A DNA stretch of 64,000 nt, taken from positions 76,831 to 140,830 of the forward strand of contig CBDESZ010000006.1 in the NCBI GenBank assembly GCA_965242725.1. The letters are read 5' to 3'. This document shows positions 1 to 39,909 of the stretch, piece by piece. Source of the DNA: Alkalispirochaeta sp. GTDB lineage: Bacteria; Spirochaetota; Spirochaetia; DSM-27196; Alkalispirochaetaceae. The notes under the pieces are model-generated. The model worked only from the letters and a program-made list of their open reading frames with translations. It was not told the DNA's origin and made no database searches. The position numbers and the translations under genes are program-made. Each line of letters opens with the position of its first letter. The stretch's first letter is position 1.

Positions 1-37
1 ATATGTGAACCTCTTCGAAGCGATGTGCCGCCGCGAT

Positions 38-65
38 TGTCATCTGTTCGTAATAAGCCTGTCAT
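38..65 (+). promoter_or_regulatory. Putative OmpR/PhoB-family tandem binding site
   Basis: TGTCAT(38), CGTAAT(49), TGTCAT(60): hexamers at exact 11-bp period upstream of the 156 ORF. Confidence 0.5.
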
Positions 66-155
66 TCTACGTTCACCTTGAGCTGCTACATTCTCAATCG
101 TTGACGGCGAGACCTGAAGACCGCCGCGATAAATACCAAATTTGGAGGACGATTT

Positions 156-692
156 ATGAATAATCGGACACTTTTAGTCGCCGTATTGCTGACGGCAGTT
201 GTATTTGGAGCCTTCGCACAAGTCGACGGGCACAATCGGAGTGTCGAAGACGTGGAGGCGGAAATTCGGACCACCCTGGGCTTGAGTAGCGAGGAGAGAA
301 TCAATCCGGACGCGGTTCCCGAGGAACTGCTCATCGTCCTCGGTGACGCGGTAATGGGAGCCTATGTAGGTGACCCTGAGCGGCACGAATGGATGGACGA
401 GATGATGGGAGGCGAAGGTTCGAGCTCTCTGGATGCCGCACATCGGTGGATGGCGTATCGGTATTTAACCGGCGGATATGCCACGGCGGGAGGAATGGGA
501 TACGGCATGATGGGCGGTGGAATGATGGGTACCGCCGGCATGATGGGCGGCGGTTGGGGCCTCATGGGCAACCCCGACATGATGTACGAGGGGATTCCGT
601 ACGGTTCACCGGAAGAGGTGCTCAAACGCCGCTATGCGGCCGGGGAGATTTCGCGTCGGGAATTCCGGCGAATGCTTCGCGAGATCGAATAG
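156..692 (+). CDS. Secreted Met/Gly-rich protein with C-terminal SHOCT domain (putative copper binding)
   Basis: Signal peptide; RHEWMDEMMGGEGS motif; GMMG tracts; SHOCT-like 'EVLKRRYAAGEISRREF'; GGAGG RBS. Confidence 0.75.
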   Translation: MNNRTLLVAVLLTAVVFGAFAQVDGHNRSVEDVEAEIRTTLGLSSEERINPDAVPEELLIVLGDAVMGAYVGDPERHEWMDEMMGGEGSSSLDAAHRWMAYRYLTGGYATAGGMGYGMMGGGMMGTAGMMGGGWGLMGNPDMMYEGIPYGSPEEVLKRRYAAGEISRREFRRMLREIE

Positions 693-762: not shown

Positions 763-1428
763 ATGGGTGAACAAAGCGATATCGTACGGAAACGATATAA
801 TAGAATTGCTCCGCTCTACGATCTTATGGAAAGACCGATGGAGAGTCATGGCACCCAATGGAGAGACGAGCTTCTCCAAGAAGCTCACGGGCGGGTGCTG
901 GAAGTCGGCGTGGGCACGGGGAAGAACCTGGCGAGCTATCCCAAAGGGGTTCACGTAACCGGGATCGATTTCAGCTCCGGTATGATTGCACGGGCTCGCG
1001 AGCGAGTGCGGGAGCTTGGGCTTACAAATGTCACACTTATCGAGATGGATGCTGAGCAAATGGAGTTTTCGGACGACAGTTTTGACACGGTCGTAACGAC
1101 CTGTGTCTTTTGCTCGGTGCCGGTTCCGATCAAAGGATTGGAGGAGATCCATCGCGTCTGCAGGCCGGAAGGAAAGGTGCTCATGCTCGAGCACGTTCGG
1201 AGTAAGGGTGCAATTCTCGGTCCAATAATGGATTTTCTGAACCCGCTCCCATTGCATCTCTACGGTGCCAATATCAACCGACGGACCGTCGAAAATCTTC
1301 GCCTGGCCGGATTCAAGGACATTGAGGTCACCGACCTTTGGAAAGACATCATGAAACGGATCGTCGCTCGCCCGTACAAGACATCGGATAAATCGTTTGA
1401 CTTTATATGGGAGGTTACAAATGCGTAA
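763..1428 (+). CDS. Class I SAM-dependent methyltransferase (UbiE/PmtA-like)
   Basis: VLEVGVGTG motif I, FDTVV..CVFCSVP; start moved to ATG763 after AGGAGG. Confidence 0.85.
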   Translation: MGEQSDIVRKRYNRIAPLYDLMERPMESHGTQWRDELLQEAHGRVLEVGVGTGKNLASYPKGVHVTGIDFSSGMIARARERVRELGLTNVTLIEMDAEQMEFSDDSFDTVVTTCVFCSVPVPIKGLEEIHRVCRPEGKVLMLEHVRSKGAILGPIMDFLNPLPLHLYGANINRRTVENLRLAGFKDIEVTDLWKDIMKRIVARPYKTSDKSFDFIWEVTNA

Positions 1429-2473
1429 AATATTTTCAATAACGGTATCCATCTCGTTAGTGCTATTAATAGGTGTCGGCAGTTTGTTCGCGGCGGGCCG
1501 CGCGGAAGAGAGTGCACCGGCAGGAACTCCGACGATCGGCGTCGTCCACATCACCTTTGGCCCGTCTTATTGGTTTAGCGGGGTGGAGTATGCGAGCTTC
1601 GGCGCAGCCTATCGGGAGCAGTGGCGCCGCCTCTCGGAGGAGGAGAATTTCAAACTCATCCAAGTGGAGGCAGGCGTCACGGCATACGATCTCGAATTCG
1701 CAACCCGGCGTCTCATCGACCTCGGGGTCGATGCGATTCTGCTCTTTCAACACGATCCGTATGCTGCGGGTCAGGCGGTACAGCTTGCCCAGGAGGCCGG
1801 TATTCCCGTCGCCATACACGGCATCAGGCCGGCATCGGGAATCAAGGCTCCTTATGTGGGTTTCTCGGAGTACGAAACGTGCAGGCTCCTGGGTCAAATC
1901 GCGGCGGAACGGTTTACCGAGCAAACGCCGGGTGTGATTCCCCGCGTTCTGGTGCTGAACAATAGGACGGTGGAACGTGATGTCAATCGAGAGCGGGGGT
2001 TCCTCGACGGTTTCCGGTCCCGCGTCCCGGACGTTGAAATAATCCAAGCCCCGGAAGATAGCGGTACTCTGGAAAGCGCCCTGCGAGTAGCCGAGGTAGC
2101 GTTCTTCAACAATCCGGAAATCAACATGGTCTATGCCACTAGCGACGAGCGTGCCTTCGGCGTGATGCAGGCGTTGAATAACGCGAATATCGCTCCGGCG
2201 GAGGTCGGCATAGTCGCCGTCGGCGGCGGCGAACGCGCCATGAAAAACGTCCTTCAACAACATAATTGGTGGGCACAAGTCGGTCTCAATGTTCGCGGCG
2301 TCGCCGAAAAATCGTACGAAGTACTGTCGATGATGATGGCAGGCGACATTCCTTTTGGGAGCGAGCGGGAGATTCTGGTGGACTCGCCGATTTTTGTTGA
2401 TCCGTCGGTCGCGGAGGTGCGGGCCTATCTTCAAAACAATCACGGAATCGAAGCTCCTGACCTGACAAAGTAA
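1421..2473 (+). CDS. Sugar ABC-type periplasmic binding protein (RbsB-like fold), no adjacent permease
   Basis: Signal 'LFAAGRAEE'; LIDLGVDAILL, AQEAGIPV, R.RGF, D..A.G motifs; GGAGG before ATG1421. Confidence 0.75.
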   Translation: MRKIFSITVSISLVLLIGVGSLFAAGRAEESAPAGTPTIGVVHITFGPSYWFSGVEYASFGAAYREQWRRLSEEENFKLIQVEAGVTAYDLEFATRRLIDLGVDAILLFQHDPYAAGQAVQLAQEAGIPVAIHGIRPASGIKAPYVGFSEYETCRLLGQIAAERFTEQTPGVIPRVLVLNNRTVERDVNRERGFLDGFRSRVPDVEIIQAPEDSGTLESALRVAEVAFFNNPEINMVYATSDERAFGVMQALNNANIAPAEVGIVAVGGGERAMKNVLQQHNWWAQVGLNVRGVAEKSYEVLSMMMAGDIPFGSEREILVDSPIFVDPSVAEVRAYLQNNHGIEAPDLTK

Positions 2474-2480: not shown

Positions 2481-4391
2481 TCACGGTGACGCGGATTGAT
2501 ACGCCAGCATACATTCCTCCGAGCAGAAGTAGTGCGTACGATCGGAGCTCTCGAGAACAAAGGGATTGCCCGTTTGATGCACTACCATACCGCAGACCGG
2601 GTCCATTGCTCCGTCGGAAATTCCGGTCGTCCGCACTTCGATATCCGAAACGGTTGGGACGCTCGTCCCGGTATTCCTGAGTATCTCGCTGACTTCTGCG
2701 GCGGTACTCACCGATACGCAGCGATTCGCGATTGTCCGAAACCGGTCCTCGGAGCCTTCCGGTACCGCGCGCCGTACCGCGTCCACCGCATGGACATCTA
2801 CGCTGAGATCTGAAAAACCGAGGCCGAAAAGCAGCGGGACCATGTCGGGATCCGAGGCGATCTCTCCACAGAGCGTCACCGGAACGGACGCGGCCTTCGC
2901 AGACTCGACGATGTGTGCCAGAGCCCGCAACGCGGTGGGGTGGTAAGGTCGGTAGAGGTGGCCCACATTCCCGTTTGTACGGTCTACGGCAAAGTGGTAC
3001 TGCAGCAGATCGTTGGTGCCGACGCTGACAAAATCGACCTTGTCATAAATCTCCTGCAGTGTCCAAAGAATGGAAGGGACCTCCAACAATACACCCTGCT
3101 TGAAATCACGCCGATACGGCGTCCCTTCAGCGTCGAGCTGTGCCCGTGCCTCGCCTACTAGGGAGAGTACCGCGTCGAGATCGTCGACGGTTTCTATCAT
3201 CGGAAAAAGCAGTCGGAGCTCCCCGCATTCAAGACCCGCCCGAAGGATGGCCTTCGTTTGCGTAATCAATATCTCCGGATGATAGGCGTAAATGCGATGC
3301 GCCCGAAGACCGAGGAAGGGGTTTTCCTGAGGACCGAGGGAAAAGAAGGAGAGACTCTTATCTCCGCCGACATCGAAGGTCCGGATTGTGACCGGAGAGG
3401 CGGGCCACTCCCGGCAGAGTGTGCGGTATTCCCGGTACTGCTGCTCTTCCGTCGGAAAGCCTTCCGCTCGGGTCAGGAGGAACTCGCTCCTGTAGAGGCC
3501 TATCCCGGCGATGCGCCCATCTTTGTCCGTCGACGATGCGTGGGTATCCACTACATTTAGGTAGACCGAGAGAGGCGAGGCCACGCTTCCACCTATGTCC
3601 GTTTTCTCCACTTCAATCCACTCTTCGATTTCCGGGTCCTTTAGCCCCAGTATGAGCCGCCCATTCGTGGTGTCTACGACAACCCGACTGCCGGCTACCT
3701 CCCTGAGGGACTCAACCCCGGCAACTCTGAGTACCGGTATGCCGAAGGCCTTCGCCATGATCGCGGCGTGGGAGAGGGGGGTTCCCGTTGCCGCAATAAT
3801 CGCTTTCACCCCCGCGTCCTTTGCCTCGAGAACCTCAGTCACCAGAAGCTCCTGGGTAACGAACACCGGGGCCTCCACATCGCAGACCGTCGAAAGTACG
3901 TCCTCCCGCTTTTGCCCGTCTAACCCTTCACGAAGCCGGCGGTGCAGATCCTCGATGTCGGAGGCTTTCTCCCTGGTTATCTCGTGACCGGAGCGTTGTA
4001 ACCGGGTCTTGACCGATCCGAAAACTTCCGCAACCGCGCTCTCCGCCGTCGCGTCTTCTTCTTCGATCCTCTTTCTGACCTGCTCCCGAAGTCCCTCATC
4101 TTTAAGAAGAAGGATGTGAGTCCGGAGGATATCGGCCTCGGAACCAAACCCTTCCGCTCGAAGTATCTCCTCGGTAGATGCAATCTCCGCCTCCAGTAAC
4201 GACATTTGCCTCTCTACGCGAGCGAACTCCGAAGCGTACGGCGCCTGAGCCGCGATCCGCCCGTTGTCGGGCGCCTGATGCGGTCGTGGTACGTCTCGAA
4301 AACAGATCGTGCCGGAAACCACCGGCGCCGTTGAAATCGGTATTCCCGCAAGGAACCTTACCCTGCCTTTGTCGTCTTCAGTCATCGTCAT
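2481..4391 (-). CDS. PEP-protein phosphotransferase (PTS Enzyme I family) fused to a C-terminal YHS domain
   Basis: SHAAIMAK phospho-His, GIGLYRSEF, IRTFDVGGDK, ENPFLGLR, SVGTNDLLQY, CGE motifs; C-terminal DPVCGM...HYFCSEEC. Confidence 0.85.
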   Translation of the reverse strand: MTMTEDDKGRVRFLAGIPISTAPVVSGTICFRDVPRPHQAPDNGRIAAQAPYASEFARVERQMSLLEAEIASTEEILRAEGFGSEADILRTHILLLKDEGLREQVRKRIEEEDATAESAVAEVFGSVKTRLQRSGHEITREKASDIEDLHRRLREGLDGQKREDVLSTVCDVEAPVFVTQELLVTEVLEAKDAGVKAIIAATGTPLSHAAIMAKAFGIPVLRVAGVESLREVAGSRVVVDTTNGRLILGLKDPEIEEWIEVEKTDIGGSVASPLSVYLNVVDTHASSTDKDGRIAGIGLYRSEFLLTRAEGFPTEEQQYREYRTLCREWPASPVTIRTFDVGGDKSLSFFSLGPQENPFLGLRAHRIYAYHPEILITQTKAILRAGLECGELRLLFPMIETVDDLDAVLSLVGEARAQLDAEGTPYRRDFKQGVLLEVPSILWTLQEIYDKVDFVSVGTNDLLQYHFAVDRTNGNVGHLYRPYHPTALRALAHIVESAKAASVPVTLCGEIASDPDMVPLLFGLGFSDLSVDVHAVDAVRRAVPEGSEDRFRTIANRCVSVSTAAEVSEILRNTGTSVPTVSDIEVRTTGISDGAMDPVCGMVVHQTGNPFVLESSDRTHYFCSEECMLAYQSASP

Positions 4392-4424
4392 TACCCCTTT
4401 CTCGAAACAGAGTATCAGTGACAG

Positions 4425-4518
4425 GTGACCGCAAGGTGACGAGTTTATTACAAATGTATGACAGCGCAGAGTTATATAGCGTCATCAAATTGCAATACGG
4501 TCGTTATATCTGCGTAAT
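4425..4518. promoter_or_regulatory. Divergent promoter region with two arrays of 11-bp-period OmpR/PhoB-type repeats
   Basis: Minus strand: TGTCAT, TGTAAT, CGTCAC, GGTCAC (plus-strand starts 4458, 4447, 4436, 4425). Plus strand: CGTCAT, TGCAAT, CGTTAT, CGTAAT (4480, 4491, 4502, 4513). Confidence 0.55.
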
Positions 4519-4591
4519 GCCGCTCTTTTATACTCCGCATAAATGTAGGCTGTTTGGAGCCGCAATAGCACTCAATGGAGGAAATTGCTAT

Positions 4592-5233
4592 ATGAATATG
4601 GACACCATGAACCAGTACGGGAAATTCCGCGCGACGTCGCACCGTGCCGCGCTCTTCGCGCTTATTCTGACGACCATGATCGGAGCGCCGACGGTCTTCT
4701 CCCTCCCCTTCGGTCATATGGGATTGGCCAATCACCGTTCCACGGGATACATAGGACCCTCGATCGGTATGTCGCCGGTTGAATCCGGCCCGGCCACCTG
4801 GGTCGGTCTCCGAGGGGGGTGGGAGTTTGATCACGCCGTCGCCGTGGGTGTAACGGGTAATTGGCTTCTAAGCAACATCGAGGAAGAGACCGGAAACAGC
4901 GCCAACCTCGGTTACGGAGGAATAGAGTTTCGGACGTTTCTATTGTCCCAGGCCCCGGTCTCCCTCGCCTTCGATTTAACAATCGGGGCCGGTTCCGTGG
5001 GAAGCGGCGTTCATTTCATGGGGGGAGGTCACCACGATTCCGACGAGGAGTCCGACGGCTTTTTCGTGGTCGAGCCGGAGCTGCAGTTGGTGTTTCGGGC
5101 GAATCGTTTCGTTCGCCTCGAATTGGGAGCCGGATACTTTATCACCAGCGGCGTCGACGTACCGGGAATTAACGATGGGGACTTGAGTGGGCCAAAGGCG
5201 ACGCTATCCATGAGCTTTGGAGACTGGCTATAG
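4592..5233 (+). CDS. Small outer-membrane beta-barrel protein with His/Met/acidic loop
   Basis: Signal peptide, amphipathic strands (YGGIEF, FFVVEPEL, LELGAGY), loop HFMGGGHHDSDEESD; GGAGG before ATG4592. Confidence 0.6.
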   Translation: MNMDTMNQYGKFRATSHRAALFALILTTMIGAPTVFSLPFGHMGLANHRSTGYIGPSIGMSPVESGPATWVGLRGGWEFDHAVAVGVTGNWLLSNIEEETGNSANLGYGGIEFRTFLLSQAPVSLAFDLTIGAGSVGSGVHFMGGGHHDSDEESDGFFVVEPELQLVFRANRFVRLELGAGYFITSGVDVPGINDGDLSGPKATLSMSFGDWL

Positions 5234-5449: not shown

Positions 5450-6514
5450 ATGAGCGAGAAAAAAACGAAAGTAGCGGTAAACGGCTACGGCGTGATAGGC
5501 AAACGAGTCGCCGACGCGGTGGTGGCACAACCGGATATGGAGCTTGTCGGGGTCGCGGACGTCGTCAACGATTACAGGATGAAGACGGCGGCGATTCGCG
5601 GGCTGCCCATTTACGCTGCGCTCCCGGAGAAAGCCGCCGGCATGCGCGAGGCGGGTCTCAGCATTGCAGGCGATCTGGACGACTTATTGGCGCAAAGTAC
5701 GGTCATCGTCGACTGTACGCCCAAAGGTATCGGAGCCAAAAACCTTGAACGATATACGAAGGCGGGGGTCAAGTCGATCTTTCAGGGAGGCGAAAGCCAC
5801 ACGCTCACCGGTCATTCATTTGTCGCACAGGCGAACTATGAGAGCGCTATCGGTCGCGACTCCACACGAGTCGTTTCGTGCAACACGACCAGCACCGTGC
5901 GCACACTGGTGGCACTTCGTTCAGCCGGGCTTCTGAAGAAGGCGAGAGGCGTATTGATTCGGAGAGCAACCGATCCGTGGGAATCCGACCACAGCGGGAT
6001 CATGAATACCGTCGTTCCGGAGCCCCATATTCCCAGCCATCAGGGCCCCGACGCACAAACGGTTATTCCGGATCTTGAAGTGGTAACGATCGCCGCCAAG
6101 GCGTCACACACGCAGACCCACAATCACTATTGGATCGTGGAACTCTCGCGCACCGTCGAGAAAGAAGAAATACTCGATGCGTTTCGTGCCGCTCCTCGTA
6201 TTGCGTTTATCCGCATGAGTGACGGTATTGTCGCGTTAAACAGCACCATTGAGCTGATGAAGGACCTTGGCCGGCCCCGCGGCGACATGTGGGAGGTAGC
6301 GCTGTGGGCAGACGTCCTGACGGTAAACGGAAACGAAGCGTACTACACCTACCAAGTGTACAACGAAGCGATCGTTGTGCCGGAGAACGTGGACGCAATT
6401 CGAGCGCTGAGCGGTGTCGTGTCGGATGCGCATGAGTCCATCCGAATAACCGACACGGCACTCGGCATGCGACGGGAGTTTCTGATTCAGGACGCCCCGG
6501 GAGATAAGAAATGA
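5450..6514 (+). CDS. gap: Type II (archaeal-type) phosphorylating glyceraldehyde-3-phosphate dehydrogenase
   Basis: VAVNGYGVIGKRVADAV, DCTPKGIG, FQGGE, RVVSCNTT catalytic Cys, PSHQGPD, IVVPENVDAIRA. Confidence 0.9.
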   Translation: MSEKKTKVAVNGYGVIGKRVADAVVAQPDMELVGVADVVNDYRMKTAAIRGLPIYAALPEKAAGMREAGLSIAGDLDDLLAQSTVIVDCTPKGIGAKNLERYTKAGVKSIFQGGESHTLTGHSFVAQANYESAIGRDSTRVVSCNTTSTVRTLVALRSAGLLKKARGVLIRRATDPWESDHSGIMNTVVPEPHIPSHQGPDAQTVIPDLEVVTIAAKASHTQTHNHYWIVELSRTVEKEEILDAFRAAPRIAFIRMSDGIVALNSTIELMKDLGRPRGDMWEVALWADVLTVNGNEAYYTYQVYNEAIVVPENVDAIRALSGVVSDAHESIRITDTALGMRREFLIQDAPGDKK

Positions 6515-7509
6515 ACCGTGTGTCGACGAATCCCCGGATCGACGGAGAGTCCGACCTGTCACATTCCATACACGCCGGAAAAGTTGCGGTGGTTGGAGCC
6601 GGCGGTGTCGGCGCGAGCTTTTCCTTTGCACTCCTGCTGAGCGGACTTGCGTCGGAGATCGTTCTCATCGATGCCAACCAATCCAAGGCCGAGGGAGAAG
6701 CATTAGATCTGAATCATGCGGTCCCGCACACGCATCCGACGCGGGTGTGGGCAGGAGATTACGGCGATTGTGCGGGGGCCGCGGTGACCATCGTAGCGGC
6801 CGGGGCTGCGCAGCAGTCCGATCAAAGCCGTCTGGAACTCGCGGAGAAAAATTCGGACATCTTCCGCCGGATTGTGCCGAATATCGTACGCAACAATCCG
6901 ACGGGAATCATTCTCGTCGCGACCAATCCGGTCGACGTACTGACCCGTCTCACATGGGAACTTTCGGGTATGCCGGAGGAAAAGGTCCTGGGCTCCGGGA
7001 CAATCCTCGACACGGCGAGATTCCGGCATCTTCTCAGTCTGCACTTTGGGGTAGATCCGCACAGCGTGCATGCCTACATCGTCGGTGAACACGGGGACAC
7101 CGAGGTGCCGCTCTGGTCGCTCGCGAACATCGCCGGCATGCGGTTTCCCGAGTTTTGCGCGGTCAATAACATGAAGTGCGACAATGACGAAATGGAGAAG
7201 ATATTTCGGAGAACCCGGGACGCGGCGTACGAAATCATCCGGAAGAAAGGTGCAACCTATTACGCGATCGGAGCCGGCCTCGTGCGGATCGTGACGGCGA
7301 TTCTGAGGAATCAGCGCACCGTGCTCTCAGTAAGTACCCGTATCACCGATTACTATGGGATAAACGGTACCTTCCTGAGTATGCCGTGTGTCGTCGGTGG
7401 CGCCGGAGTCGAACGGTATCTTCGTTTAAATCTGAGCGACGACGAGGCTACGGCATTACAACATTCGGCGGCCGTAGTGGACAAATCGATGGAATCGATA
7501 CGGCAATGA
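6511..7509 (+). CDS. ldh: L-lactate dehydrogenase
   Basis: GAGGVG, ATNPVD, GSGTILDTARFR, GEHGD, KGATYYAIG; overlaps the gap stop (ATGA). Confidence 0.9.
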   Translation: MNRVSTNPRIDGESDLSHSIHAGKVAVVGAGGVGASFSFALLLSGLASEIVLIDANQSKAEGEALDLNHAVPHTHPTRVWAGDYGDCAGAAVTIVAAGAAQQSDQSRLELAEKNSDIFRRIVPNIVRNNPTGIILVATNPVDVLTRLTWELSGMPEEKVLGSGTILDTARFRHLLSLHFGVDPHSVHAYIVGEHGDTEVPLWSLANIAGMRFPEFCAVNNMKCDNDEMEKIFRRTRDAAYEIIRKKGATYYAIGAGLVRIVTAILRNQRTVLSVSTRITDYYGINGTFLSMPCVVGGAGVERYLRLNLSDDEATALQHSAAVVDKSMESIRQ

Positions 7510-7536: not shown

Positions 7537-8019
7537 CTACCTCTTTGCCAGTAGCATTAACGGCCAGGGTAGGACGAGTAGCTGAACAAAAGGTGAAACT
7601 CCAATACCGAGGAGCGGTACCATCGGCATGAGCGAGGAGTATACCCAACGACCGGTCGCGAGAGCGTGGAACTCGATAGCGGCGGCGATAACCGCACCGA
7701 CAATTGCCAAGATCGCCACATTTCCGGCGGTGAGCGGACGAAACCAGTCCAGTGAGCGATAGAATAGATACCCCGTCGCCCAGATGGCGACAATGATCAG
7801 CCCGTCTCCTAAGCTCGCTCTCAAACAGATTAACCAGCTCGAAAGCTCACTGAAGGGCATATTCTCGTAGAGCGGCATTTGCGCCATCTCCCAAACATAG
7901 TTGACGACCACGGAAATGAAGAACAGTCGCAGAAGGAAACGGCCCGTCGGACTTTTCAAAACAGCTCCGCCTCCCATTACCGCATCTCCGAGGCGCTTAC
8001 GCTGCTTGTTCGATACCAT
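7537..8019 (-). CDS. Hypothetical integral membrane protein (start uncertain)
   Basis: About 4 hydrophobic segments; WEMAQMPLY, GDG, GRWVYS..MP motifs. Confidence 0.6.
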   Translation of the reverse strand: MVSNKQRKRLGDAVMGGGAVLKSPTGRFLLRLFFISVVVNYVWEMAQMPLYENMPFSELSSWLICLRASLGDGLIIVAIWATGYLFYRSLDWFRPLTAGNVAILAIVGAVIAAAIEFHALATGRWVYSSLMPMVPLLGIGVSPFVQLLVLPWPLMLLAKR

Positions 8020-8609: not shown

Positions 8610-8888
8610 CTACCGACGATATGTACCGAGCATACTCATGATCTCTTTTTGCTTTTCCGTTTGCTCGGTGAGATTCTCGCTTCGAATCGCATCGGCGACA
8701 CAGGTGTCAAGATGATTCTGGAGAACGATGTTCTCGACGTTGCGTATCGCCGCGACTACGGCCGAAGTCTGGTTCAGTATGTCTAAGCAGTATCGATCTG
8801 TTTCAACCATTTTACTGACCCCGCCGAGCTGGCCCCGAATCCTGCTTAAGCGATCGCGTATACTCTTTTTTTGTTTATCGTCAAGCAT
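8610..8888 (-). CDS. csoR: Copper-sensing repressor, CsoR family
   Basis: RLSRIRGQ..G..KM...RYC.DIL.Q, H..TC fingerprint. Confidence 0.9.
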   Translation of the reverse strand: MLDDKQKKSIRDRLSRIRGQLGGVSKMVETDRYCLDILNQTSAVVAAIRNVENIVLQNHLDTCVADAIRSENLTEQTEKQKEIMSMLGTYRR

Positions 8889-9019: not shown

Positions 9020-9126
9020 GATATTAGCGTATGAATCTTTTTTAATCGAAGGGCGATACGGCTGATTAATCCGGGCTCCTGATGAGTCCGGAAGAGGTAC
9101 ACAGCGCCCTTCGAAAGGAGCCACGT

Positions 9127-11157
9127 ATGAGTAAGCAGGTTGACCACAATCACCACAATCACCACGGTGATCAACACCATGACCACAATGAACATCACAG
9201 GATGATGATCCGTGATTTCCGAACGCGGTTTTACGTGACCCTGGTGTTCACCATTCCGGTCCTCGCGTTATCGGAACTCATTCAGCAGTTCCTCGGCTTT
9301 TCGTTCACCTTTGCCGGAGCGGATTATGTCGTCTTTGGCCTGGCCACGATCATATTTGTATATGGCGGCTGGCCCTTCCTTAGCGGTCTGGTCGGTGAAC
9401 TTAAGCAGAAAGCACCGGGCATGATGACCCTCATCGCTCTCGCCATAACGGTAGCGTATGTCTACAGCGCGGCGGTAACGTTTGGTCTTGAAGGGACACC
9501 TTTTTATTGGGAATTGGCAACCTTAATCGCGATTATGCTTGCGGGTCACTGGATTGAAATGGCCTCAGTATTAAGTGCGTCGTCCGCCCTTGAGAAGCTT
9601 GCCCAACTCATGCCGAACGAAGCGCACAAAAAGTCCGGAGACGATGTTAAAGACGTCCCGCTCTCGGAGATCAAGAAGGGTGATATTCTGGTCATCAAGC
9701 CGGGAGAAAAAATACCCTCTGACGGCGTGATCACTCGCGGGTCGAGCTATATAGATGAGTCTATGCTGACCGGTGAGTCTCGCCCGGTGCACAAGGAGTC
9801 AGGCGATCAGCTTATCGGCGGCTCTATAAACGGCGACGGATCGATGGAACTCAGGGTGGAAAGTTCGGGCGAAGATTCCTACCTTTCAAAAGTCATCAAT
9901 ATGGTCAGGGAGGCGCAGGCAGCCAAGTCGAAGACGCAAGCACTTTCGGATCGTGCGGCGCTCTGGCTGACGATTGTCGCAATAACGGTGGGATTATCGA
10001 CCCTCGTGGCGTGGTTGCTTGCCGGGCAGGGGTTGCAGTTTTCCATTGCCCGGATGGCGACGGTAATGATCATTACGTGTCCCCACGCTTTAGGGCTGGC
10101 GATACCATTGGTGGTAGCACAGTCCACCGCCAAGTCCGCTCAGAACGGCCTGCTGATTCGCAACCGTACCGCCTTTGAGAATGCCCGGAAGATAAGCGCG
10201 GTCCTCTTTGATAAAACGGGAACGCTTACCAAGGGAACCTTCGAGGTTAACTCCGTGAATGTCCATAGCGGTCCGTACACAGAAAAGGAAATTCTCTCAT
10301 TTGCGGCAGCCTTGGAGGGGCAGTCGGAACACCCCATCGGTAAGGGAATTGTGACAAAAGCGAAGAGCGACGGAATCACCATCCAATCTGCCGATGATTT
10401 CGAGGCGATTAAGGGTAAGGGCGTCACCGGTACCGTCGGGAGTAAGCGCATTCAGGTAGTGAGCCCGGGATATTTGGAAGAACAGGGGCTCGACAGGCCG
10501 CAGGGAGCGGAGCGCAAGGGCGGGGTCACCCGCGTCTTCGTCCTCGTTGACGGCGAAGTTGCAGGATCCGTGGCTCTTTCCGACACCATTCGACCCGAGT
10601 CCTACCGGGCGATTCAAGCGCTGAAAAAACGGGGAATCGAATGCTGGATGCTCACCGGAGATAACCGGGAGACTGCCGAAGCCGTTGCGGAGGAACTCGG
10701 AATGGACGGGTTCTTTGCGGAGGTCCTCCCCGATCAGAAGCAGGAAAAGGTGAAGGAGTTGCAGGACAAAGGAGCGTATGTTGCTATGACCGGTGATGGG
10801 GTCAATGATTCGCCGGCCCTCGCCCAGGCACAGATCGGCATTGCCGTCGGGTCCGGAACGGACGTTGCCGCTGCGACGGCCGATATTATACTGGTCAACT
10901 CCAACCCACTTGATATTACCGCGTTAATTCTCTTTGGTCGGGCTACCTACCGGAAAATGGTGCAGAACCTGATCTGGGCAACGGGTTACAACGTGGTGGC
11001 CATCCCCCTGGCGGCAGGCGTTTTATACAGTAGCACCGGTATGGTGCTTTCACCGGAGGTTGGTGCCATTCTGATGTCCCTTTCCACCGTGATTGTTGCC
11101 GTAAACGCGCGACTCTTGCGCGTCAAGAAAGAGGAATTGGAAGAGGCGACGGCTTGA
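9127..11157 (+). CDS. copB: Copper-exporting P1B-3 ATPase (CopB type)
   Basis: His-rich N-terminus, TGES, CPHALG, DKTGT, SEHP, GDGVND, YN and MSLST motifs; AAGGAG before ATG9127. Confidence 0.92.
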   Translation: MSKQVDHNHHNHHGDQHHDHNEHHRMMIRDFRTRFYVTLVFTIPVLALSELIQQFLGFSFTFAGADYVVFGLATIIFVYGGWPFLSGLVGELKQKAPGMMTLIALAITVAYVYSAAVTFGLEGTPFYWELATLIAIMLAGHWIEMASVLSASSALEKLAQLMPNEAHKKSGDDVKDVPLSEIKKGDILVIKPGEKIPSDGVITRGSSYIDESMLTGESRPVHKESGDQLIGGSINGDGSMELRVESSGEDSYLSKVINMVREAQAAKSKTQALSDRAALWLTIVAITVGLSTLVAWLLAGQGLQFSIARMATVMIITCPHALGLAIPLVVAQSTAKSAQNGLLIRNRTAFENARKISAVLFDKTGTLTKGTFEVNSVNVHSGPYTEKEILSFAAALEGQSEHPIGKGIVTKAKSDGITIQSADDFEAIKGKGVTGTVGSKRIQVVSPGYLEEQGLDRPQGAERKGGVTRVFVLVDGEVAGSVALSDTIRPESYRAIQALKKRGIECWMLTGDNRETAEAVAEELGMDGFFAEVLPDQKQEKVKELQDKGAYVAMTGDGVNDSPALAQAQIGIAVGSGTDVAAATADIILVNSNPLDITALILFGRATYRKMVQNLIWATGYNVVAIPLAAGVLYSSTGMVLSPEVGAILMSLSTVIVAVNARLLRVKKEELEEATA

Positions 11158-11177
11158 TTGTCCCGGTTTTTAGTAAC

Positions 11178-11218
11178 TGTAACATGATCGCAACATAGCG
11201 GTCGCCGGAATGTAACAT
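11178..11218 (+). promoter_or_regulatory. Putative OmpR-family tandem binding site
   Basis: TGTAAC(11178), CGCAAC(11189), GGTCGC(11200), TGTAAC(11211) at 11-bp period upstream of the SHOCT/two-component operon. Confidence 0.45.
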
Positions 11219-12441: not shown

Positions 12442-13137
12442 ATGGCCGGTGAGCGCATTCTCATCGTTGACGATGAGGCCGGCATACAGAAGACACTAAA
12501 GGCGTATCTGGAAAATGAAGGATACGCCACGGAGTCAGTAACCGAAGGCGATTGGGTGCTCCCGAGGGTACAGATATTTAAGCCTGACGTTGTTATTCTT
12601 GATATTATGCTCCCAGGAATTGATGGAATAGAAGTATTAAGACGACTCCGGCAGGACTCCTCCGTATTGGTGCTCATGCTCAGCGCCAAGGGCGAGGAGT
12701 CCGACCGTCTCGTGGGACTCAAAATGGGGGCAGATGACTACGTCGTAAAACCATTTAGTCCCCGGGAGGTTGTAACTCGGGTCGGCGTTCTCCTTCGGCG
12801 CGGTCGGGGAGCGGACGGCGACCCGGGCGACGTTATTAGATTTTCCCGAATCACCGTCGACCCGGGCAGCAGACAAGCGTGGAAAGATGCGACAATACTG
12901 AGCCTGACTCCGATAGAGTTTGACTTGCTCCTCACCCTTTCCCGCAACAGCGGGCGAGTCCTCAGTCGAGATCAGTTGATCGACCACGCCTGGGGTGACG
13001 ACTACTACATCGATGAGCGTGTCGTTGATGTGCACGTTCGCAGACTCCGCAGGAAGATCGAAGACGATCCCCGAGAAGCCCGAATTATTGCCACCGCGCG
13101 AGGTGCCGGCTATCGCCTGGATTCCAATCACGCATGA
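12442..13137 (+). CDS. OmpR-family response regulator
   Basis: ILIVDDE, LDIMLPG, GADDYVVKPFS, winged helix VDVHVRRLRRK..RGAGY. Confidence 0.92.
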   Translation: MAGERILIVDDEAGIQKTLKAYLENEGYATESVTEGDWVLPRVQIFKPDVVILDIMLPGIDGIEVLRRLRQDSSVLVLMLSAKGEESDRLVGLKMGADDYVVKPFSPREVVTRVGVLLRRGRGADGDPGDVIRFSRITVDPGSRQAWKDATILSLTPIEFDLLLTLSRNSGRVLSRDQLIDHAWGDDYYIDERVVDVHVRRLRRKIEDDPREARIIATARGAGYRLDSNHA

Positions 13138-14255
13138 AGCTGGAAACATTCTTAAAACCGAAACTTGGACGTAAGCTCTTTCTTTCCCATTTGATTGTTG
13201 TACTCGTGGGAAGCGTGGTCCTGGCGGCCGTCGCCTACCTGCACGCACCTCGCGCGCTGACACATCACATGGCGGAAATGGACGCAGCAATGGGGCGGAT
13301 GCACGGCATGGGAGTGGATCTCAGGCAGAGTTTTCTTGCTGCGGTGGGCGAGGTGCTCTTCGTCGCGGGACTCGTCGCCGTCGGGGCGGCGGTAGTGGTG
13401 AGCAGTTTCGTGGCATGGCGAATTATCGGGCCAGTTCGTTCTTTGACGGTTGCCAGTAGACGTATCGCCGACGGCGATTACTCCCACCGAGTCGAGGCCG
13501 TCTGGAAGGATGAGTTGGGAGAGCTGGCCGCGTCGTTCAATCGCATGGCTGCCGCACTCGATGAAACCGAAAGGAGACGTGCGGAACTTATTGGCAATGT
13601 AGCCCACGAACTTCGCACGCCGCTCACAACGATTCGGAGCATGATGGAAGGGCTCATTGATGGTGTGTTGCCGGCGGATACCGAAACCTTTCTCGACGTA
13701 CAGCGCGAGGCATCACGGCTCGGCCGTCTCACCTCAGAATTGAGCGAGCTCTCTCGTGCCGAAGCGGGGGAGATTTCATTGGAAACCAAGCTGACGGATC
13801 CGAAAGTACTGCTCCGAATAGCCGTTAATCGCCTTCGTCCGCAATTCCAGGACAAAGGTATTGCGCTGACGGTCGGGTTTCCACAACGAAACCTGCCGTG
13901 GGTCGATGTAGATGACGAAAAGATACTCCAGGTTCTGCTCAATTTAATCGGAAATGCACTCCAATATACCGACCCGGAGGGTAGCGTCCAGGTACAGTGC
14001 CAAGCGGAGGGAGATTTGGTTCGGTTTTCCGTTTCTGATGATGGAATCGGCATTCCGCCCGAGGATCTCCCTCGGGTGTTTGAGCGATTCTATCGGGTGG
14101 ATAAGTCGCGAGCACGCTCCCGCGGTGGGAGCGGAATCGGTCTCACTATTGCCGCTCATTTGGTGAAGGCTCATGGTGGAACAATCGCGGTCAAAAGTAA
14201 TGGGATTGGTCAAGGAAGTGTTTTTTCTTTCGTCATCCCACGACCGAAAGATTAA
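13134..14255 (+). CDS. HAMP-domain sensor histidine kinase (BaeS-like) with short His/Met-rich sensor loop
   Basis: Loop HHMAEMDAAMGRMHGMG between two TM helices; AHELRTP, N, G1, F and G2 boxes. Confidence 0.9.
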   Translation: MKLETFLKPKLGRKLFLSHLIVVLVGSVVLAAVAYLHAPRALTHHMAEMDAAMGRMHGMGVDLRQSFLAAVGEVLFVAGLVAVGAAVVVSSFVAWRIIGPVRSLTVASRRIADGDYSHRVEAVWKDELGELAASFNRMAAALDETERRRAELIGNVAHELRTPLTTIRSMMEGLIDGVLPADTETFLDVQREASRLGRLTSELSELSRAEAGEISLETKLTDPKVLLRIAVNRLRPQFQDKGIALTVGFPQRNLPWVDVDDEKILQVLLNLIGNALQYTDPEGSVQVQCQAEGDLVRFSVSDDGIGIPPEDLPRVFERFYRVDKSRARSRGGSGIGLTIAAHLVKAHGGTIAVKSNGIGQGSVFSFVIPRPKD

Positions 14256-14349: not shown

Positions 14350-14559
14350 TTATCTGACCGCTCCAACCGTATAACCCGCCTCGGAAACTGATTGAGCGTA
14401 CGTCTCCAAGGGAATCTCAGCTTGAACATTTACGGAAGCGACTCCCGACTGCAAATCAACCGTTACGGTGGAGACGCCGTCGATTTTTTCAAGCGCTTGC
14501 CGAACACTCATCGCACAGTGATCGCAACTCATATCCTTAATGTAAACTTGTTGTGTCAT
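14350..14559 (-). CDS. copZ: Copper chaperone (HMA domain)
   Basis: 69 aa, MSCDHC metal-binding loop, EAGY. Confidence 0.9.
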   Translation of the reverse strand: MTQQVYIKDMSCDHCAMSVRQALEKIDGVSTVTVDLQSGVASVNVQAEIPLETYAQSVSEAGYTVGAVR

Positions 14560-15518: not shown

Positions 15519-15797
15519 ATGATGAAAGAAGAACAGAGGGAAAAAGTACGGAACAGGTTACGCCGGATTGAAGGACAGATTGCCGGGATTGGTCGTATGA
15601 TTGATGATGACCGATACTGTGTCGACATTCTCAACCAAACGTCGGCCGTCATCGCGGCGATCAGGAACGTTGAGAATATCGTAATGGAGAACCACTTGAA
15701 CACATGTGTCGTCGATGCGATTCGGAGCGGAGATCCTGAGGAACAACGCCTGAAGACGACCGAAATTATGGATGTGCTTGGCAAGTATCGGAAGTGA
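15519..15797 (+). CDS. csoR: Second CsoR-family repressor
   Basis: RLRRIEGQ..RYCVDILNQ..ENHLNTC; near-match operator TACG-GGGGTAT-GGTA at 15505-15519. Confidence 0.88.
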   Translation: MMKEEQREKVRNRLRRIEGQIAGIGRMIDDDRYCVDILNQTSAVIAAIRNVENIVMENHLNTCVVDAIRSGDPEEQRLKTTEIMDVLGKYRK

Positions 15798-16972: not shown

Positions 16973-17087
16973 CTGTAATCAGTATATCAGCGACCTTGAG
17001 CCGCAGGTGTCGAACCTACGATTTTTCGGACTTTGTTTGTATAATGTAGAAGAAATGAACAAGCAAAAAGGAATTTGGAAGCATCTA

Positions 17088-17779
17088 TAGGTAGCAGCTG
17101 GTATCTGAAATAGTTCAAATTTATCATTATTAAAACTATCTGACTTTTCAACACCAAGAATATCAATAAATGATTCATCATTTTTTTCACTAGGCAAATA
17201 GACTGATATCAGAGGAGAATCAGTCACCTCTCCCCATCTACCATTTGTCAAATTCCAAAGCTCTTGGTATTCATCTGTACATACGTATTCTTTCCAGAAT
17301 TTAGGGCCTTCTTTAAAAAAGTTTTCATGTGTAAAGTTTTTACTCTTCCCTACCAATTCAAAAGACGGTTTTTCGACTATTTTATAATCCATATCATTTC
17401 CTCCTTTGATTTCGATATGAAAAGAAACACGATTATATGCCGATAATTTAACCTCAGAGCTGCGCACTTCTCGTGGATTAATACCATGCATATTCCGGAA
17501 TGCTCTAGTAAACGCATTTGGTGATTCATAACCATATTTCAGAGCGATATCAATGACTTTTTCATTCCCAGCAGCGAGATCAGAGGCTGCTAAATTCAAT
17601 CTTCGTCGTCTGATATATTCAGCAGGCGTAATCCCAATGATTGCATAAAACATTCGCTGAAAATGAAATGATGAACAATTGGCTATCTTTGCTACTTCTG
17701 AAATCAGTAGTTCATATTTAATATTATCTTCAATATAATTGATTGCCATATTCATTCTTTCAGACCATTCCATTATCAT
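17088..17779 (-). pseudogene. AraC/Rob-family regulator with GyrI-like domain, 3'-truncated; AT-rich cassette gene
   Basis: AINYIEDN, FHFQRMF, YIRRRRL, IALKYGYESPNAFTRAF; family-like sequence stops at 'IPAATY'. Confidence 0.8.
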
Positions 17780-17927
17780 GCTTCCTTGTTATGCATAGTA
17801 ATAAATTTTAATTCTATGATCTCACCTTTTTATGCGATGCGATGTGTGTTTATACATTTCCAAACTGGCACGGATGCCAGTTTGCCTATATATAATCCCT
17901 TCTCCCAAAAAAGGGCGGGGTAATTGC

Positions 17928-17990
17928 ATCTAACGTCCTGCGAATAGCCGAAGTTACCAAGGCATTCACCTGTCAACAATGTCCTTAGCT
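17928..17990 (-). other. Truncated attC (R' side only) at the head of the araC cassette
   Basis: Minus strand ..CGCAGGAC-GTTAGAT core site and a small hairpin; no matching R''/L'' arm. Confidence 0.4.
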
Positions 17991-18026
17991 TTCTGTAAAC
18001 CATCTCCATGATCAGTACCTGTGTCC

Positions 18027-18125
18027 ACATAACGATGAGTTGAGTTGTTTGGCGTTAATCGGCGCGGTTGTTGCAGAAGCAAGAACCGTGACGATAGCCA
18101 AATCAACTCGAACGTGGTGTTATGT
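18027..18125 (-). other. attC site (99 bp) closing the higBA cassette
   Basis: Minus strand R'' ACATAAC, L'' GTTCGAG vs L' CTCAAC (extra C), TTGATTTGGC vs GCCAAACAA (extra A), R' GTTATGT. Confidence 0.88.
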
Positions 18126-18198
18126 GACTCAGGTTTTTGAGGTGGACCCCTTCGTCAAGACCACTCAACGAGGGTCTTAAGCTACTCCATTGCCCCGC

Positions 18199-19026
18199 TC
18201 AGGCTGCAGCCTGAGCGCCGCGCCGGTTGTATGCCATATTCGGCGTCTTCCCATCCACGGATGAGTGAGGGCGCCGTCCGTTGTACATCGTGATGTACTC
18301 ATCGATTCGTTGCCGGGCTTCTGCCGGTGATTGGTAGTCGTTGAGGTACACCTCGTCGTACTTGATCGTCCGCCAGAACCGCTCGATGATTACATTGTCG
18401 AGAGCGCGGCCCTTGCCATCCATACTGATCTTCACGCCCGCATCTTTAAGGGGCTGCAGAAACGCCGGAGAGGTGAACTGTACTCCCTGATCGGAGTTGA
18501 AGATCTCCGGCGGCCCATACCGTCTGAGAGCCTGCTCGAGCACTTCAATCGCGGACGATTTGTCGAGAGTCAGGCTTACGTCCCAGCTCAACACCTTCCG
18601 GGAGAACCAGTCAATGATCGCCGTCAGGTACACGAACCCGTCTTCCAGCCGAATATAGGTCGTATCGATCGACCACACCTGGTTGGGACGCTCAATCGAC
18701 AACCCTCTCAAGAGGTACGGGTATACCTCGTGTTCCGGCGGCAGGCGACGGTGATAGGTGTGCGGAAACACCACACGCAGCATCATGAGCCGCATCAGAC
18801 GCTGTACGCGCTTCCGGTTGACCGTCCAACCCTCCAGACGCAGGGCGTCACGGATCATTCGGCTGCCCCACGTGATATGCGCGGTGTGGAGCTCATCGAT
18901 CCGTTTCATAAGCTGATCGGTGTCCCGATCGACCTTCTGCGGTTGGTAGTACAGCGTTGATCGGTTCAGGCCCAACAGCATGCACTGCTCACGGACTGAC
19001 AGTCTTTCGTGATCCGGCTCGATCAT
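18199..19026 (-). CDS. IS3-family transposase OrfB (DDE)
   Basis: WSIDTTY, IDWFSR, FNSDQGVQF, DN..IERFW. Confidence 0.92.
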   Translation of the reverse strand: MIEPDHERLSVREQCMLLGLNRSTLYYQPQKVDRDTDQLMKRIDELHTAHITWGSRMIRDALRLEGWTVNRKRVQRLMRLMMLRVVFPHTYHRRLPPEHEVYPYLLRGLSIERPNQVWSIDTTYIRLEDGFVYLTAIIDWFSRKVLSWDVSLTLDKSSAIEVLEQALRRYGPPEIFNSDQGVQFTSPAFLQPLKDAGVKISMDGKGRALDNVIIERFWRTIKYDEVYLNDYQSPAEARQRIDEYITMYNGRRPHSSVDGKTPNMAYNRRGAQAAA

Positions 19027-19331
19027 TTCCCGAAGTTCGGCAGCTGATCGACTCCCAGTTTTTTTTTCAGGAAATCGATCTGTACTTGCTGGTGACCGAC
19101 CTTCCGGTATAGCTCATCTCGTTCGGCCTCAGTGGCCTGTTGCTCGTCATCATGCTTGCCGGCAAAGATGTCCGGCCCATGATCCATCAGCTCTTTCTTC
19201 CAGCGATGGACCTGCGTCGGATGAACGCCATATTCCTCGGCGATCTCCGTCACGCTGCGGTCAGCCTTGTAGGCCTCCATCGCAACCTTGAACTTGGTCG
19301 CCTTGTTCCATGTTGTTCGTCGTCGTCCCAT
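19023..19331 (-). CDS. IS3-family OrfA (HTH)
   Basis: KFKVAMEA..IAEEYGVHPTQVHRWK; ends LKKK at the slippery site. Confidence 0.88.
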   Translation of the reverse strand: MGRRRTTWNKATKFKVAMEAYKADRSVTEIAEEYGVHPTQVHRWKKELMDHGPDIFAGKHDDEQQATEAERDELYRKVGHQQVQIDFLKKKLGVDQLPNFGK

Positions 19332-19429
19332 GGTGCAAAACCTCCGATTCCCATTCCAACGCAATCTTCATGCGTTGTCCAGTTTTCGGGGTCCACCATA
19401 TTTCGTACAAAAGAATCGAAGCAAGAGCG

Positions 19430-19732
19430 CTAATTCGTCTTGGCGAGTACTCGCGGGATCTTTCTCAAGTCTTCTTTCAGCCGTTCCTTTTCATCGCGAA
19501 GATCATACTCATCCTGGATACCCATCCAGAACTCCGCCGAGTTTCCAAAATACGCCGATAATCGAAGCGCGGTGTCCGCAGTAATACGCCGATTACCTTT
19601 TAGGATCTGCGATATTCGAGTCGCCGGCATCCGGGTGTCCTGGGCAAGTCGGTACGCACTGATTCCCATCGGCTCGAGGAATTCTTCTTTCAATATTTCT
19701 CCGGGAGTAACATTGGGAATTTCGTCCATCAC
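19430..19732 (-). CDS. higA: HigA antitoxin
   Basis: PGEILKEEFLEPMGIS.YRLA..ITADTALRL..FG.SAEFWM..Q..YDL. Confidence 0.92.
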   Translation of the reverse strand: MMDEIPNVTPGEILKEEFLEPMGISAYRLAQDTRMPATRISQILKGNRRITADTALRLSAYFGNSAEFWMGIQDEYDLRDEKERLKEDLRKIPRVLAKTN

Positions 19733-19964
19733 ATCCTCCTAGTGGTAATCCACGATTTCGACGTCGTGAGCCGATCCGTTTTCCCAACGAAAACAGATCC
19801 GCCATTGATCATTAATCCGCACGCTATGCTGACCTGATCGACCCCCCGATAATGATTCCAGTCGATTCCCTGGTGGTATTCGGAGATCATTCAGATCTCG
19901 GGACCGATGAATCATGACGAGTTTGCGATAGGCGGTTTTCTGAATCGGTTCGGGGATTTTTTTT

Positions 19965-21297: not shown

Positions 21298-21370
21298 TTT
21301 TTTTTTGAAAACTCTTGCCGCCAGATTCTCGACGTCTCTTTGTCCTTAAATGACTCGATCACCTAGGCTA

Positions 21371-21414
21371 ATAATAACGCAATACATCATTGACGTAAAG
21401 CGTCATTATGACGC
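21371..21414 (-). promoter_or_regulatory. higBA promoter and palindromic operator
   Basis: Minus strand TTTACG-N17-TATTAT ending 8 nt before the GTG start (near-leaderless); IR GCGTCAT-T-ATGACGC at 21400-21414. Confidence 0.6.
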
Positions 21415-21477
21415 GAGAGCGTACCTTCGGTTTCTGCGTCAATCGCGTATTGCAATTTGGCTTCGCGTTCCGGAGTC

Positions 21478-21554
21478 ACATAACGACCGCATCACCTGCG
21501 CCCTCGCAGGAGCGAAGCGACGAGAAGGCGTCTGGTGAATGCGCGATGTTATGT
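21478..21554 (-). other. attC site (77 bp) immediately 5' of the ISCR-like transposase gene
   Basis: Minus strand R'' ACATAAC, GCATTCACC vs GGTGATGC (one extra base), CCAGACGCC vs GGCGCAGG (extra A), R' GTTATGT. Confidence 0.85.
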
Positions 21555-21616
21555 TGCGCACGGTGACCACGCCCCCTATCTGAAGCAGGAAGCTCGCTAC
21601 GCCCGTATGTGTTTAT

Positions 21617-22954: not shown

Positions 22955-23174
22955 CTGCTCTCTCGGCCTCGCGCCGTGGCATCCGTGTGTCCGTCTTACG
23001 CCCCAATCGTTTCCGTAACAGCCCTGATCTGTCCGTTTGGACGTTTGCGTACTCGAGTGGGCGGCAAGTGCGCCGCCGGCGCACGGCGAACCGCGATTCT
23101 CGTCGTGATTTCGTCGAGTCTTGCGCCTACCGCCCGTTTTCCGGTTGCGCTCGCGGATAACTCTTCCTACTACT
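22955..23174 (+). other. oriIS-like end
   Basis: About 220 bp non-coding tail ending AACTCTTCCTACTACT (TTCCTA resembles IS91/ISCR oriIS); identity with copy 2 stops here; IR GTGCGCCG/CGGCGCAC at 23068-23084. Confidence 0.75.
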
Positions 23175-23238
23175 GGTGCTTCTCGAGTCGGAGGGCATGC
23201 GCCTCGAGGATGTCGTCGCCGAGCTCGCCTCGCGCTGA
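23171..23238 (+). pseudogene. hisE: 3' remnant of phosphoribosyl-ATP pyrophosphatase (hisE/hisIE)
   Basis: Translates LVLLESEGMRLEDVVAELASR*, matching the HisE C-terminal pattern; only 21 codons. Confidence 0.6.
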
Positions 23239-23331
23239 CCGACTGACCGGCCGTCATCGCGGCGGGCCTGTTGCGGACGACCTTCCGTCGGAACGGGCGA
23301 CCCGGCGTACGGCGCGCGCCGTCCCCGGTCG

Positions 23332-39480: not shown

Positions 39481-39563
39481 TCTGAAATCAGTAGTTCATA
39501 TTTAATATTATCTTCAATATAATTGATTGCCATATTCATTCTTTCAGACCATTCCATTATCAT
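39477..39563 (-). pseudogene. 5' stub of the araC cassette gene
   Basis: MIMEWSERMNMAINYIEDNIKYELLISEV, then runs into antisense hutH. Confidence 0.85.
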
Positions 39564-39810: not shown

Positions 39811-39909
39811 ACATAACGATGAGTTGAGTTGTTTGGCGTTAATCGGCGCGGTTGTTGCAGAAGCAAGAACCGTGACGATAGCCAAATCAACTCGAACGTG
39901 GTGTTATGT
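39811..39909 (-). other. attC (copy of 18027-18125)
   Basis: Same sequence as copy 1. Confidence 0.88.

Follow-up and report, generated by a model that had tools for sequence, protein, structure and literature searches.

EI-YHS, an Enzyme I (EI) that ends in a YHS/TRASH-type tail, is a real, conserved and uncharacterised variant of Enzyme I, which is carried here by a mobile copper island of an Alkalispirochaeta species, within the 64,000-nucleotide stretch of DNA that was analysed (hereafter the window). By analogy with an adenylyl cyclase gated by a YHS domain, we read it, at about even chances, as a copper-induced, copper-modulated accessory EI of the island, which would phosphorylate the HPr of its host. 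An earlier note on this DNA knew of no characterisation of the architecture, and no paper on it was found, most subscription journals lying outside the search.

The open reading frame runs through 636 codons without an internal stop. The likelier start is its second ATG, at 4385, which has AAAGGGG 8 nt upstream and matches the 634 aa of the database entry for the protein (P0002). The gene and the parts of its product are as follows.

2481 to 4391, minus strand: EI-YHS gene, 636 aa, or 634 aa from the likelier start at 4385
Residues 24-141: HPr-binding domain
Residues 176-244: phospho-His domain, with H208 in SHAAI
Residues 274-543: PEP-binding barrel, with R301, R337, D340, R363, E437, N460, D461, R471 and C508
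2484 to 2618, minus strand (residues 592-636): YHS/TRASH-type tail, with the putative ligands D597, C600, C623 and C627

The enzyme body is complete, as had been claimed in the earlier note. The HPr-binding, phospho-His and PEP-binding domains stand in EI order and match the three EI domains of Pfam (PF05524, PF00391, PF02896), SHAAI (H208), CGE (C508) and the PEP-binding residues are present, and the protein reaches 357.5 bits on TIGR01417, above the cut-off of 341.7. Across the query and 119 homologs, R301, R337, R363, E437, N460, D461 and C508 are each found in 120/120, H208 in 119/120 and R471 in 118/120; we take the Arg, Glu, Asn and Asp residues to bind PEP and Mg and the Cys to be catalytic. 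An AlphaFold2 model of the full protein (mean pLDDT 86.5) has a disordered linker at 582-592 followed by a folded tail, and Foldseek matches it to solved EIs, with E 2e-38 and TM 0.71/0.79 against S. aureus EI (2WQD). The E. coli numbering H189 and R358 was taken from the alignment and PMC5537066.

The EI-YHS gene is under purifying selection, being maintained, not tightly: against an 87%-identical copy in genome G312, dN/dS is 0.23 for the gene and 0.17 for the tail alone (35 codons only), with 0.18 for the neighbouring methyltransferase and 0.11 for the SHOCT gene in the same comparison. At 24 well-conserved columns, including P184V and F551, the copy in the window differs from the consensus of the family, as is expected on the long spirochaete branch. 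In one metatranscriptome, 0.14 of the words were present, low-depth contigs covering bits of the gene, which falls short of demonstrating transcription.

The C-terminus had also been taken for a YHS domain, and this assignment is upheld by its motif and by family-wide matches, whereas this copy itself stays below the Pfam gathering score. The ligand residues of the motif DPVCGM...YFCSEEC (D597, C600, C623, C627) are each found in 120/120 proteins (query and 119 homologs), and they fit the Asp/Cys-x2-Cys ... Cys-x3-Cys YHS/TRASH ligand pattern, as in PMC4626032. PF04945 (YHS) gives 18.8 bits at residues 596-629 of the whole protein and 25.3 bits (E 1.5e-5) on the isolated tail, both under the gathering score of 30.3; among family members, YHS is matched by 63/67 (E<=0.01) and by 31/31 tails (E<=0.001), the best E being 1e-13. 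The linker before the tail counts about 20 residues here and 14-29 (median 20) across the family, and degenerate tails occur (L117, P0145). Modelled alone, the tail has a pLDDT of 92, and its best fold match is YacG (Z 4.9, rmsd 1.0, 36 aligned residues), followed by L24e/ribosomal chains and a monooxygenase C-terminal domain (Z 4.2), the Z scores being low because the domain has just 45 residues; profile matches are to eL24 and phenol hydroxylase (E 0.004-0.005). As it is zinc-binding treble-clef domains that it most resembles in fold, the modelled tail may bind zinc or play a structural role. That the tail docks on the EI body is weakly suggested by co-folding, which scored 0.42 (0.01 for the best of 3 controls), with at least 86% of contacts agreeing between runs and a partner pLDDT of at least 79; scores up to 0.60 are rated weak, since in calibration the mark was reached there by 18/157 solved complexes, and both of the mismatches that passed (2/215) lay at <=0.60.

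EI-YHS proteins make up a clade that is rare and patchily spread over several phyla. All of the best 119 homologs (36-87% identity) bear the tail; the closest named ones belong to Alkalispirochaeta (87%) and Marispirochaeta (49%), named sources also include Deltaproteobacteria, Deferrisoma, Sedimentisphaerales and Rhodothermia, and source databases occasionally use the label "EI/YHS domain-containing protein" for the family. Searched by profile, 1.84 billion representatives yielded 24 tail-spanning rows of at least 670 bits; below them came tail-less relatives and fragments, and then ordinary EIs, which did not exceed 490 bits. A tree of 84 rows, made by FastTree with no bootstrap and no outgroup, split 38 tailed and 5 tail-less proteins from 41 ordinary EIs with an SH-like support of 100; four tail-less proteins (L015, L104, L127, L135) are a sister group, while L101, also tail-less, nests inside the tailed clade. 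Within the host phylum, a motif pattern that does not catch every member found the gene in 1/300 other genomes; it occurs in 2/21 genomes of the host family and in 0/80 other genomes of the order of a planctomycete host, and no relative was found in the viral contigs searched.

The enzyme body itself carries changes that set 134 tailed proteins apart from 107 ordinary EIs. The HPr-binding helix residues I88, H92, D98, R142, D145 and D148 are retained as in ordinary EIs; position 138 is Leu or Val in the family as against an aromatic residue in ordinary EIs (Tyr in 74/107), and HPr specificity may therefore differ. Family-specific residues of the beta3-alpha3 loop are G353, P354, Q355, H365 (or Asn), Y368, R369 and H371, of which G353 and H371 each occur in 134/134 tailed proteins; another family-specific position, apart from the loop, is W443. 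On the face of the His domain, L183, V187, T204 and L206 align with E. coli T164, T168, G185 and T187, and the connection between His domain and barrel spans 56 residues (52-60, n=134), compared with 69 (62-70, n=107) in ordinary EIs, being 13 residues shorter in all family members. According to PMC5537066, the beta3-alpha3 loop is an allosteric hub that joins PEP binding, dimerisation and closure, T164, T168 and G185 are perturbed on domain association and form part of the His-domain surface meeting the catalytic domain, and the connecting helix of EI lies at 231-260; by that account, the changes would fall on the open-closed switch, not on the HPr dock.

The surroundings had been described as a copper island, which agrees with the genes identified: a P1B ATPase, two CsoR-family repressors, an HMA protein, SHOCT proteins and an OmpR/BaeS-type pair. 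The main features, with two central-carbon genes, are given below.

5450 to 6514, plus strand: type II GAPDH, central-carbon gene
6511 to 7509, plus strand: L-lactate dehydrogenase, central-carbon gene
8610 to 8888, minus strand: CsoR-family repressor
9082 to 11157, plus strand: His-rich P1B copper ATPase (TIGR01511 over cut-off)
12442 to 13137, plus strand: OmpR-family response regulator, candidate reader of the arrays
13134 to 14255, plus strand: BaeS-like histidine kinase, candidate reader of the arrays
14350 to 14559, minus strand: stand-alone HMA (CopZ-like) protein
about 15519 to 15797, plus strand: second CsoR-family repressor

The kinase and the regulator fall below the cut-offs of heavy-metal two-component models. 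Ahead of the window, a stretch of 20 kb encodes a second copper ATPase, Lgt, MMPL proteins, and pyruvate formate-lyase together with its activase. G307, a genome from a different species of the genus, matches at least 46 kb (C6:48477-94865) at 99.4-99.8% identity, the match ending at window 18035, adjoining an IS3 element; as other G307 matches to the host genome mostly stand at 70-85%, a recent horizontal transfer of the island is indicated. Palindromes of the form ATACC...GGTAT, which we take to be the CsoR-type consensus, lie at window 8922 and 8995, in the interval that separates csoR from the copper ATPase gene, and elsewhere in the island at C6:61469 and C6:67231, none being found before the EI-YHS gene; they are a putative second regulatory layer of the island.

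Several other observations concern the island and its borders. A second, decayed and frameshifted copy of EI-YHS (C6:76563-76984, to about window 154, plus strand; 30-47% identity over short stretches) directly precedes a SHOCT gene. The SHOCT protein, with a Met/Gly-rich stretch, occurs in two island copies (window 156-692 and C6:67505-68041) of 97.6% nucleotide identity, each preceded by an 11-bp array. Periplasmic sugar-binding-type proteins of 65% identity are encoded at window 1421-2473 (plus strand) and L005:4654-5712 (minus strand), with no ABC permease seen alongside, and the G312 copy is about 30 residues shorter. Two further homologous copper modules lie at C6:8450-13500 and C16:312500-321600; they include an ATPase, a regulator and kinase (on C6) and an HMA-like gene with the array, and an rnf-like operon adjoins the C6 module. 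Inside the transferred block, L005:11673-19487 encodes pyruvate formate-lyase and activase, cysteine synthase, an Rrf2 regulator and an ABC transporter. IS3, ISL3 and IS91-family elements lie within window 16979-24000 and 39144-43400, where an AraC-type gene is also interrupted near 17779; a second copy of the IS3 and IS91 blocks, 100% identical, stands at about 39500-43600. A Cd/Zn-type P1B ATPase (window 44456-46642, minus strand) lies outside the copper block. The island proteins at 4571-5233 (plus strand) and 7537-8019 (minus strand) have no Pfam or NCBIfam match, the latter having homologs in 3 locus groups.

An 11-bp-period array upstream of the EI-YHS gene had likewise been reported, and it is real. 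Arrays of this kind in the window include the following.

35 to 78, minus strand: four-unit array before the SHOCT gene at 156
4419 to 4466, plus strand: four-unit T[GT]AC array, putative OmpR-family operator, 34-77 bp before the EI start
4477 to 4520, minus strand: second, opposite-facing, weaker array (units 4481-4517; 19.1 bits), toward the divergent gene at 4571
11175 to 11218, minus strand: held-out match of the array model before the SHOCT/response regulator/kinase operon

The units of the EI-YHS array lie at 4426, 4437, 4448 and 4459 and read GTCA/GTAA on the EI sense strand; they are conserved in G312, with variable spacers. A generic array statistic was reached by 5/300 dinucleotide shuffles, and the 4.3 Mb genome contains just 4 chains of four T[GT]A[AC] units at lag 11, all of them in front of genes of copper modules. 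When the sites were left out of the model one at a time, each was recovered at rank 4 or 5 of the whole genome; the model also matches before the HMA-like gene (C16), a DUF302 gene and, weakly, a methyltransferase (15381), and unrelated matches with intermediate scores occur on C3 and C31. Generic repeat finding did not detect the array, and a sigma-70 scan of the intergenic region found no promoter. A Pho box (PhoB operator) was considered and rejected, as pstS (C16:89623) has no match among the 22 best genome-wide array matches. OmpR-family regulators typically bind tandem sites with 11-bp spacing, and a repeat of 11-bp period is bound by CopR of Corynebacterium glutamicum (PMC3353115). Judged from its sequence, the array is likely the operator of an OmpR-type regulator; it would be read by that of the island, with copper as the signal.

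For the neighbourhood statistics, 54 clade loci (47 from a metagenome pattern, 6 other genome loci and this one) were gathered into 36 groups at 85% EI identity, 31 tailed (L012, L098 and L130 end before the tail) and 5 tail-less, which include kin and are not fully independent; 2 of the 49 metagenome pattern matches (L094, L122) were dropped as not being EI. In a scan of species genomes, ordinary EIs far outnumbered clade members, which made up 5/80 loci (L011-L015), the other 75 serving as controls, and median locus length was 21.5 kb for these controls versus 11.4 kb for clade loci. Markers were tblastn queries from the window and the test loci, and 10 locus-marker pairs rest on a same-locus query only. 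Core metal genes were P1B ATPase, CsoR, HMA, multicopper oxidase and CusA/B; island markers were DUF2933-like, DUF5676, ICMT-like, SAM methyltransferase and DUF302.

Linkage of the homologs to metal genes, which had been set as a test in advance, is strong. Core metal genes lie near the tailed EI in 15/31 groups, in 20/31 counting other YHS proteins, and in 24/31 with island markers added, as against 1/75 ordinary-EI controls on each measure; for loci of at least 8 kb, the three counts are 14, 17 and 20 of 22. Other YHS proteins were nearby in 17/31 groups (16/31 on recount), and an island marker is absent in 7/31 (including L014, L117 and L129), several of them on contigs of less than 3 kb. 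In the tail-less sister clade, island markers were present in 4/4 and core metal genes in 2/4, while L101 has no such neighbours, which makes 4/5 tail-less groups with island markers. Thus the copper link is independent of the tail, and EI activity seems useful in such islands without it. Neighbours with a YHS domain of their own include a thioredoxin-reductase/AhpF-like protein with YHS fused to its front, often beside EI-YHS, at five loci:

L096:527-1591
L100:1040-2170
L105:4749-5825
L109:1-921
L111:4948-5994

An alpha-glucan phosphorylase with a fused YHS likewise lies near the EI-YHS gene at L013:4103-5923 (minus strand).

HPr was found near the EI in 0/36 groups (0/31 tailed), compared with 42/75 ordinary EIs counting HPr fused to or overlapping the EI, or 27/75 without matches inside the EI span. 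The earlier note had seen no HPr in the window, and indeed the HPr matches of the host genome lie on C17, C27, C13 and, weakly, C31. This does not amount to the lack of a partner, since three HPrs are encoded in the genome, along with three further EIs, one adjoining engA, one GAF-bearing (C9) and one within an operon for a sugar PTS. In each of five other hosts, too, an HPr is encoded away from the locus, so that it occurs in all 6 hosts checked; four of the five have a separate ordinary EI, the fifth, a fragmented genome, has only two clade-type copies, and HprK occurs in three of them. An ICMT-like membrane protein lies near 12/31 groups and P-II near 5/31; the idea that one of them acts as relay (P-II) or partner (ICMT-like) was nevertheless dropped, as neither is constant across loci nor present within 12 kb of the EI-YHS gene of the window.

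Compared with known systems, EI-YHS probably functions like an EI, and like a sensor-tailed one in the manner of PtsP, being neither PtsI nor PtsP by its sequence. It shares with PtsI (E. coli 2HWG, S. carnosus 2HRO, S. aureus 2WQD) the three-domain layout, the fold and all catalytic residues; it differs in its tail, its 13-residue shorter connecting segment and its reshaped beta3-alpha3 loop, and in being accessory, island-borne, never adjoining HPr and on a separate branch of the tree, and it scores 272.8 bits on the PtsI equivalog model against a cut-off of 824. EI-Ntr (PtsP), which serves signalling rather than transport, resembles it in having a small appended domain that may set EI activity; the GAF domain of PtsP is, however, N-terminal, whereas EI-YHS has no GAF match and a C-terminal Cys tail, and scores 306 against 583 bits on the PtsP model. 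The class IIIc adenylyl cyclase of Mycobacterium phlei likewise has a C-terminal Asp+3Cys YHS on a dimeric enzyme with a metal cofactor, and is switched on by 1-10 uM copper, copper binding by its YHS having been shown only indirectly (PMC4626032); its catalytic domain is unrelated and its linker has 8-11 residues, compared with 14-29 in EI-YHS. In the literature found, this cyclase is the one enzyme for which a fused YHS/TRASH domain has a regulatory effect. C. glutamicum CopRS provides a parallel for the array, with an OmpR-type regulator, an 11-bp-period tandem site and a copper ATPase nearby; its site, TGAAGATTTnnTGAAGATTT, has two units, whereas the putative EI-YHS site has four shorter T[GT]AC units (PMC3353115).

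As a mechanism for a copper-modulated accessory EI, we propose that copper stress would turn the gene on via the OmpR-type regulator of the island and the 11-bp array. The enzyme, judged from its residues, would bind PEP and Mg2+, dimerise and phosphorylate H208 like any EI. Cytoplasmic copper, the metal suggested by the gene context and by the M. phlei cyclase, would bind the tail at D597/C600/C623/C627, and the tail, packing on the enzyme body as in the weak co-folding model, might shift the open-closed or dimer equilibrium, most likely toward the active state; activation is the likelier direction in that the same Asp+3Cys pattern mediates activation of the cyclase by copper (PMC4626032). 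Phosphate would then pass in trans to the host HPr and alter HPr/EIIA phosphorylation and the PEP-to-pyruvate balance, and in many hosts the output would be signalling rather than sugar uptake. Counting against this reading, deletion of ptsHI had no effect on the copper LD50 of E. faecium (PMC11234649).

Since tail-less sisters also sit in copper islands, a copper-tolerant back-up remains a live rival to a metal-gated EI, and we consider it possible, on the doubtful side. Here the housekeeping EI, with its catalytic Cys and His, would be poisoned by copper, and EI-YHS would belong to a substitute carbon-enzyme kit, its tail capturing or buffering copper without gating; the sister clade would fit a later gain of the tail as a second control layer, and would fit a back-up enzyme equally. 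Such a kit would find company in the type II GAPDH, lactate dehydrogenase and pyruvate formate-lyase with activase of the same island, in a class I aldolase of the G312 island and in the glucan phosphorylase, GlgC-like protein or enolase of other loci, and GapA of S. pyogenes is inhibited by copper (PMC7733945). These carbon genes are, however, rare (type II GAPDH, lactate dehydrogenase and enolase at 1/31 loci each, phosphorylase at 2/31), and PF02378 EIIC is over cut-off in 0/5 other hosts (incomplete genomes; one EIIC family only), so that often there would be no uptake flux to rescue. Moreover, a mere buffer would not call for a reshaped allosteric loop and a shorter linker, and the literature found names no EI as a copper target.

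It is unlikely that EI-YHS is instead an EI-like kinase whose acceptor is not HPr but, for instance, a protein of the island, or a valve that consumes PEP and releases pyruvate. The absence of adjoining HPr from all 36 groups, the altered residues around the phospho-His (T204, L206, V187) and at 138, and the ICMT-like protein and P-II near some groups would suit this explanation; yet no neighbour is constant, the HPr-binding helices are retained, every host checked has HPr, and no fusion to an acceptor was found among 24 full-length 50% clusters nor, as a weak negative, any longer fused form at E<=1e-40 among 3787 candidates. We regard as improbable that the tail serves as a structural zinc site or senses another metal (Ag, Cd, Zn), or that the gene is a passenger of mobile islands and takes no part in metal handling. 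The zinc treble-clef folds that best match the tail, the rarity and mobility of the gene and the decayed second copy just before the window speak in its favour, whereas purifying selection on EI-YHS, its own copy of the operator-like array of the copper modules, conserved in G312, and the strong cross-phylum link to copper-type genes speak against it.

Bacteria control their uptake of carbon, and much of their regulation, through the PTS, for which the known small-molecule inputs are metabolites of carbon and nitrogen. We know of no earlier direct metal input into the PTS, and a metal-gated EI would, if true, be the first to our knowledge, linking copper stress directly to the PTS hub and accounting for the carbon-metabolism genes of copper islands. 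EI-YHS also offers a clean test of YHS/TRASH function, with standard EI assays, a tail-less sister as control and three Cys residues. More tentatively, and at somewhat less than even chances, this overlooked, widespread clade of EIs may be a horizontally moving copper switch that writes into the PTS phosphorylation of its hosts, and copper islands may YHS-tag central enzymes (EI, glucan phosphorylase and a thioredoxin-reductase-like protein), which would reroute metabolism post-translationally as copper rises.
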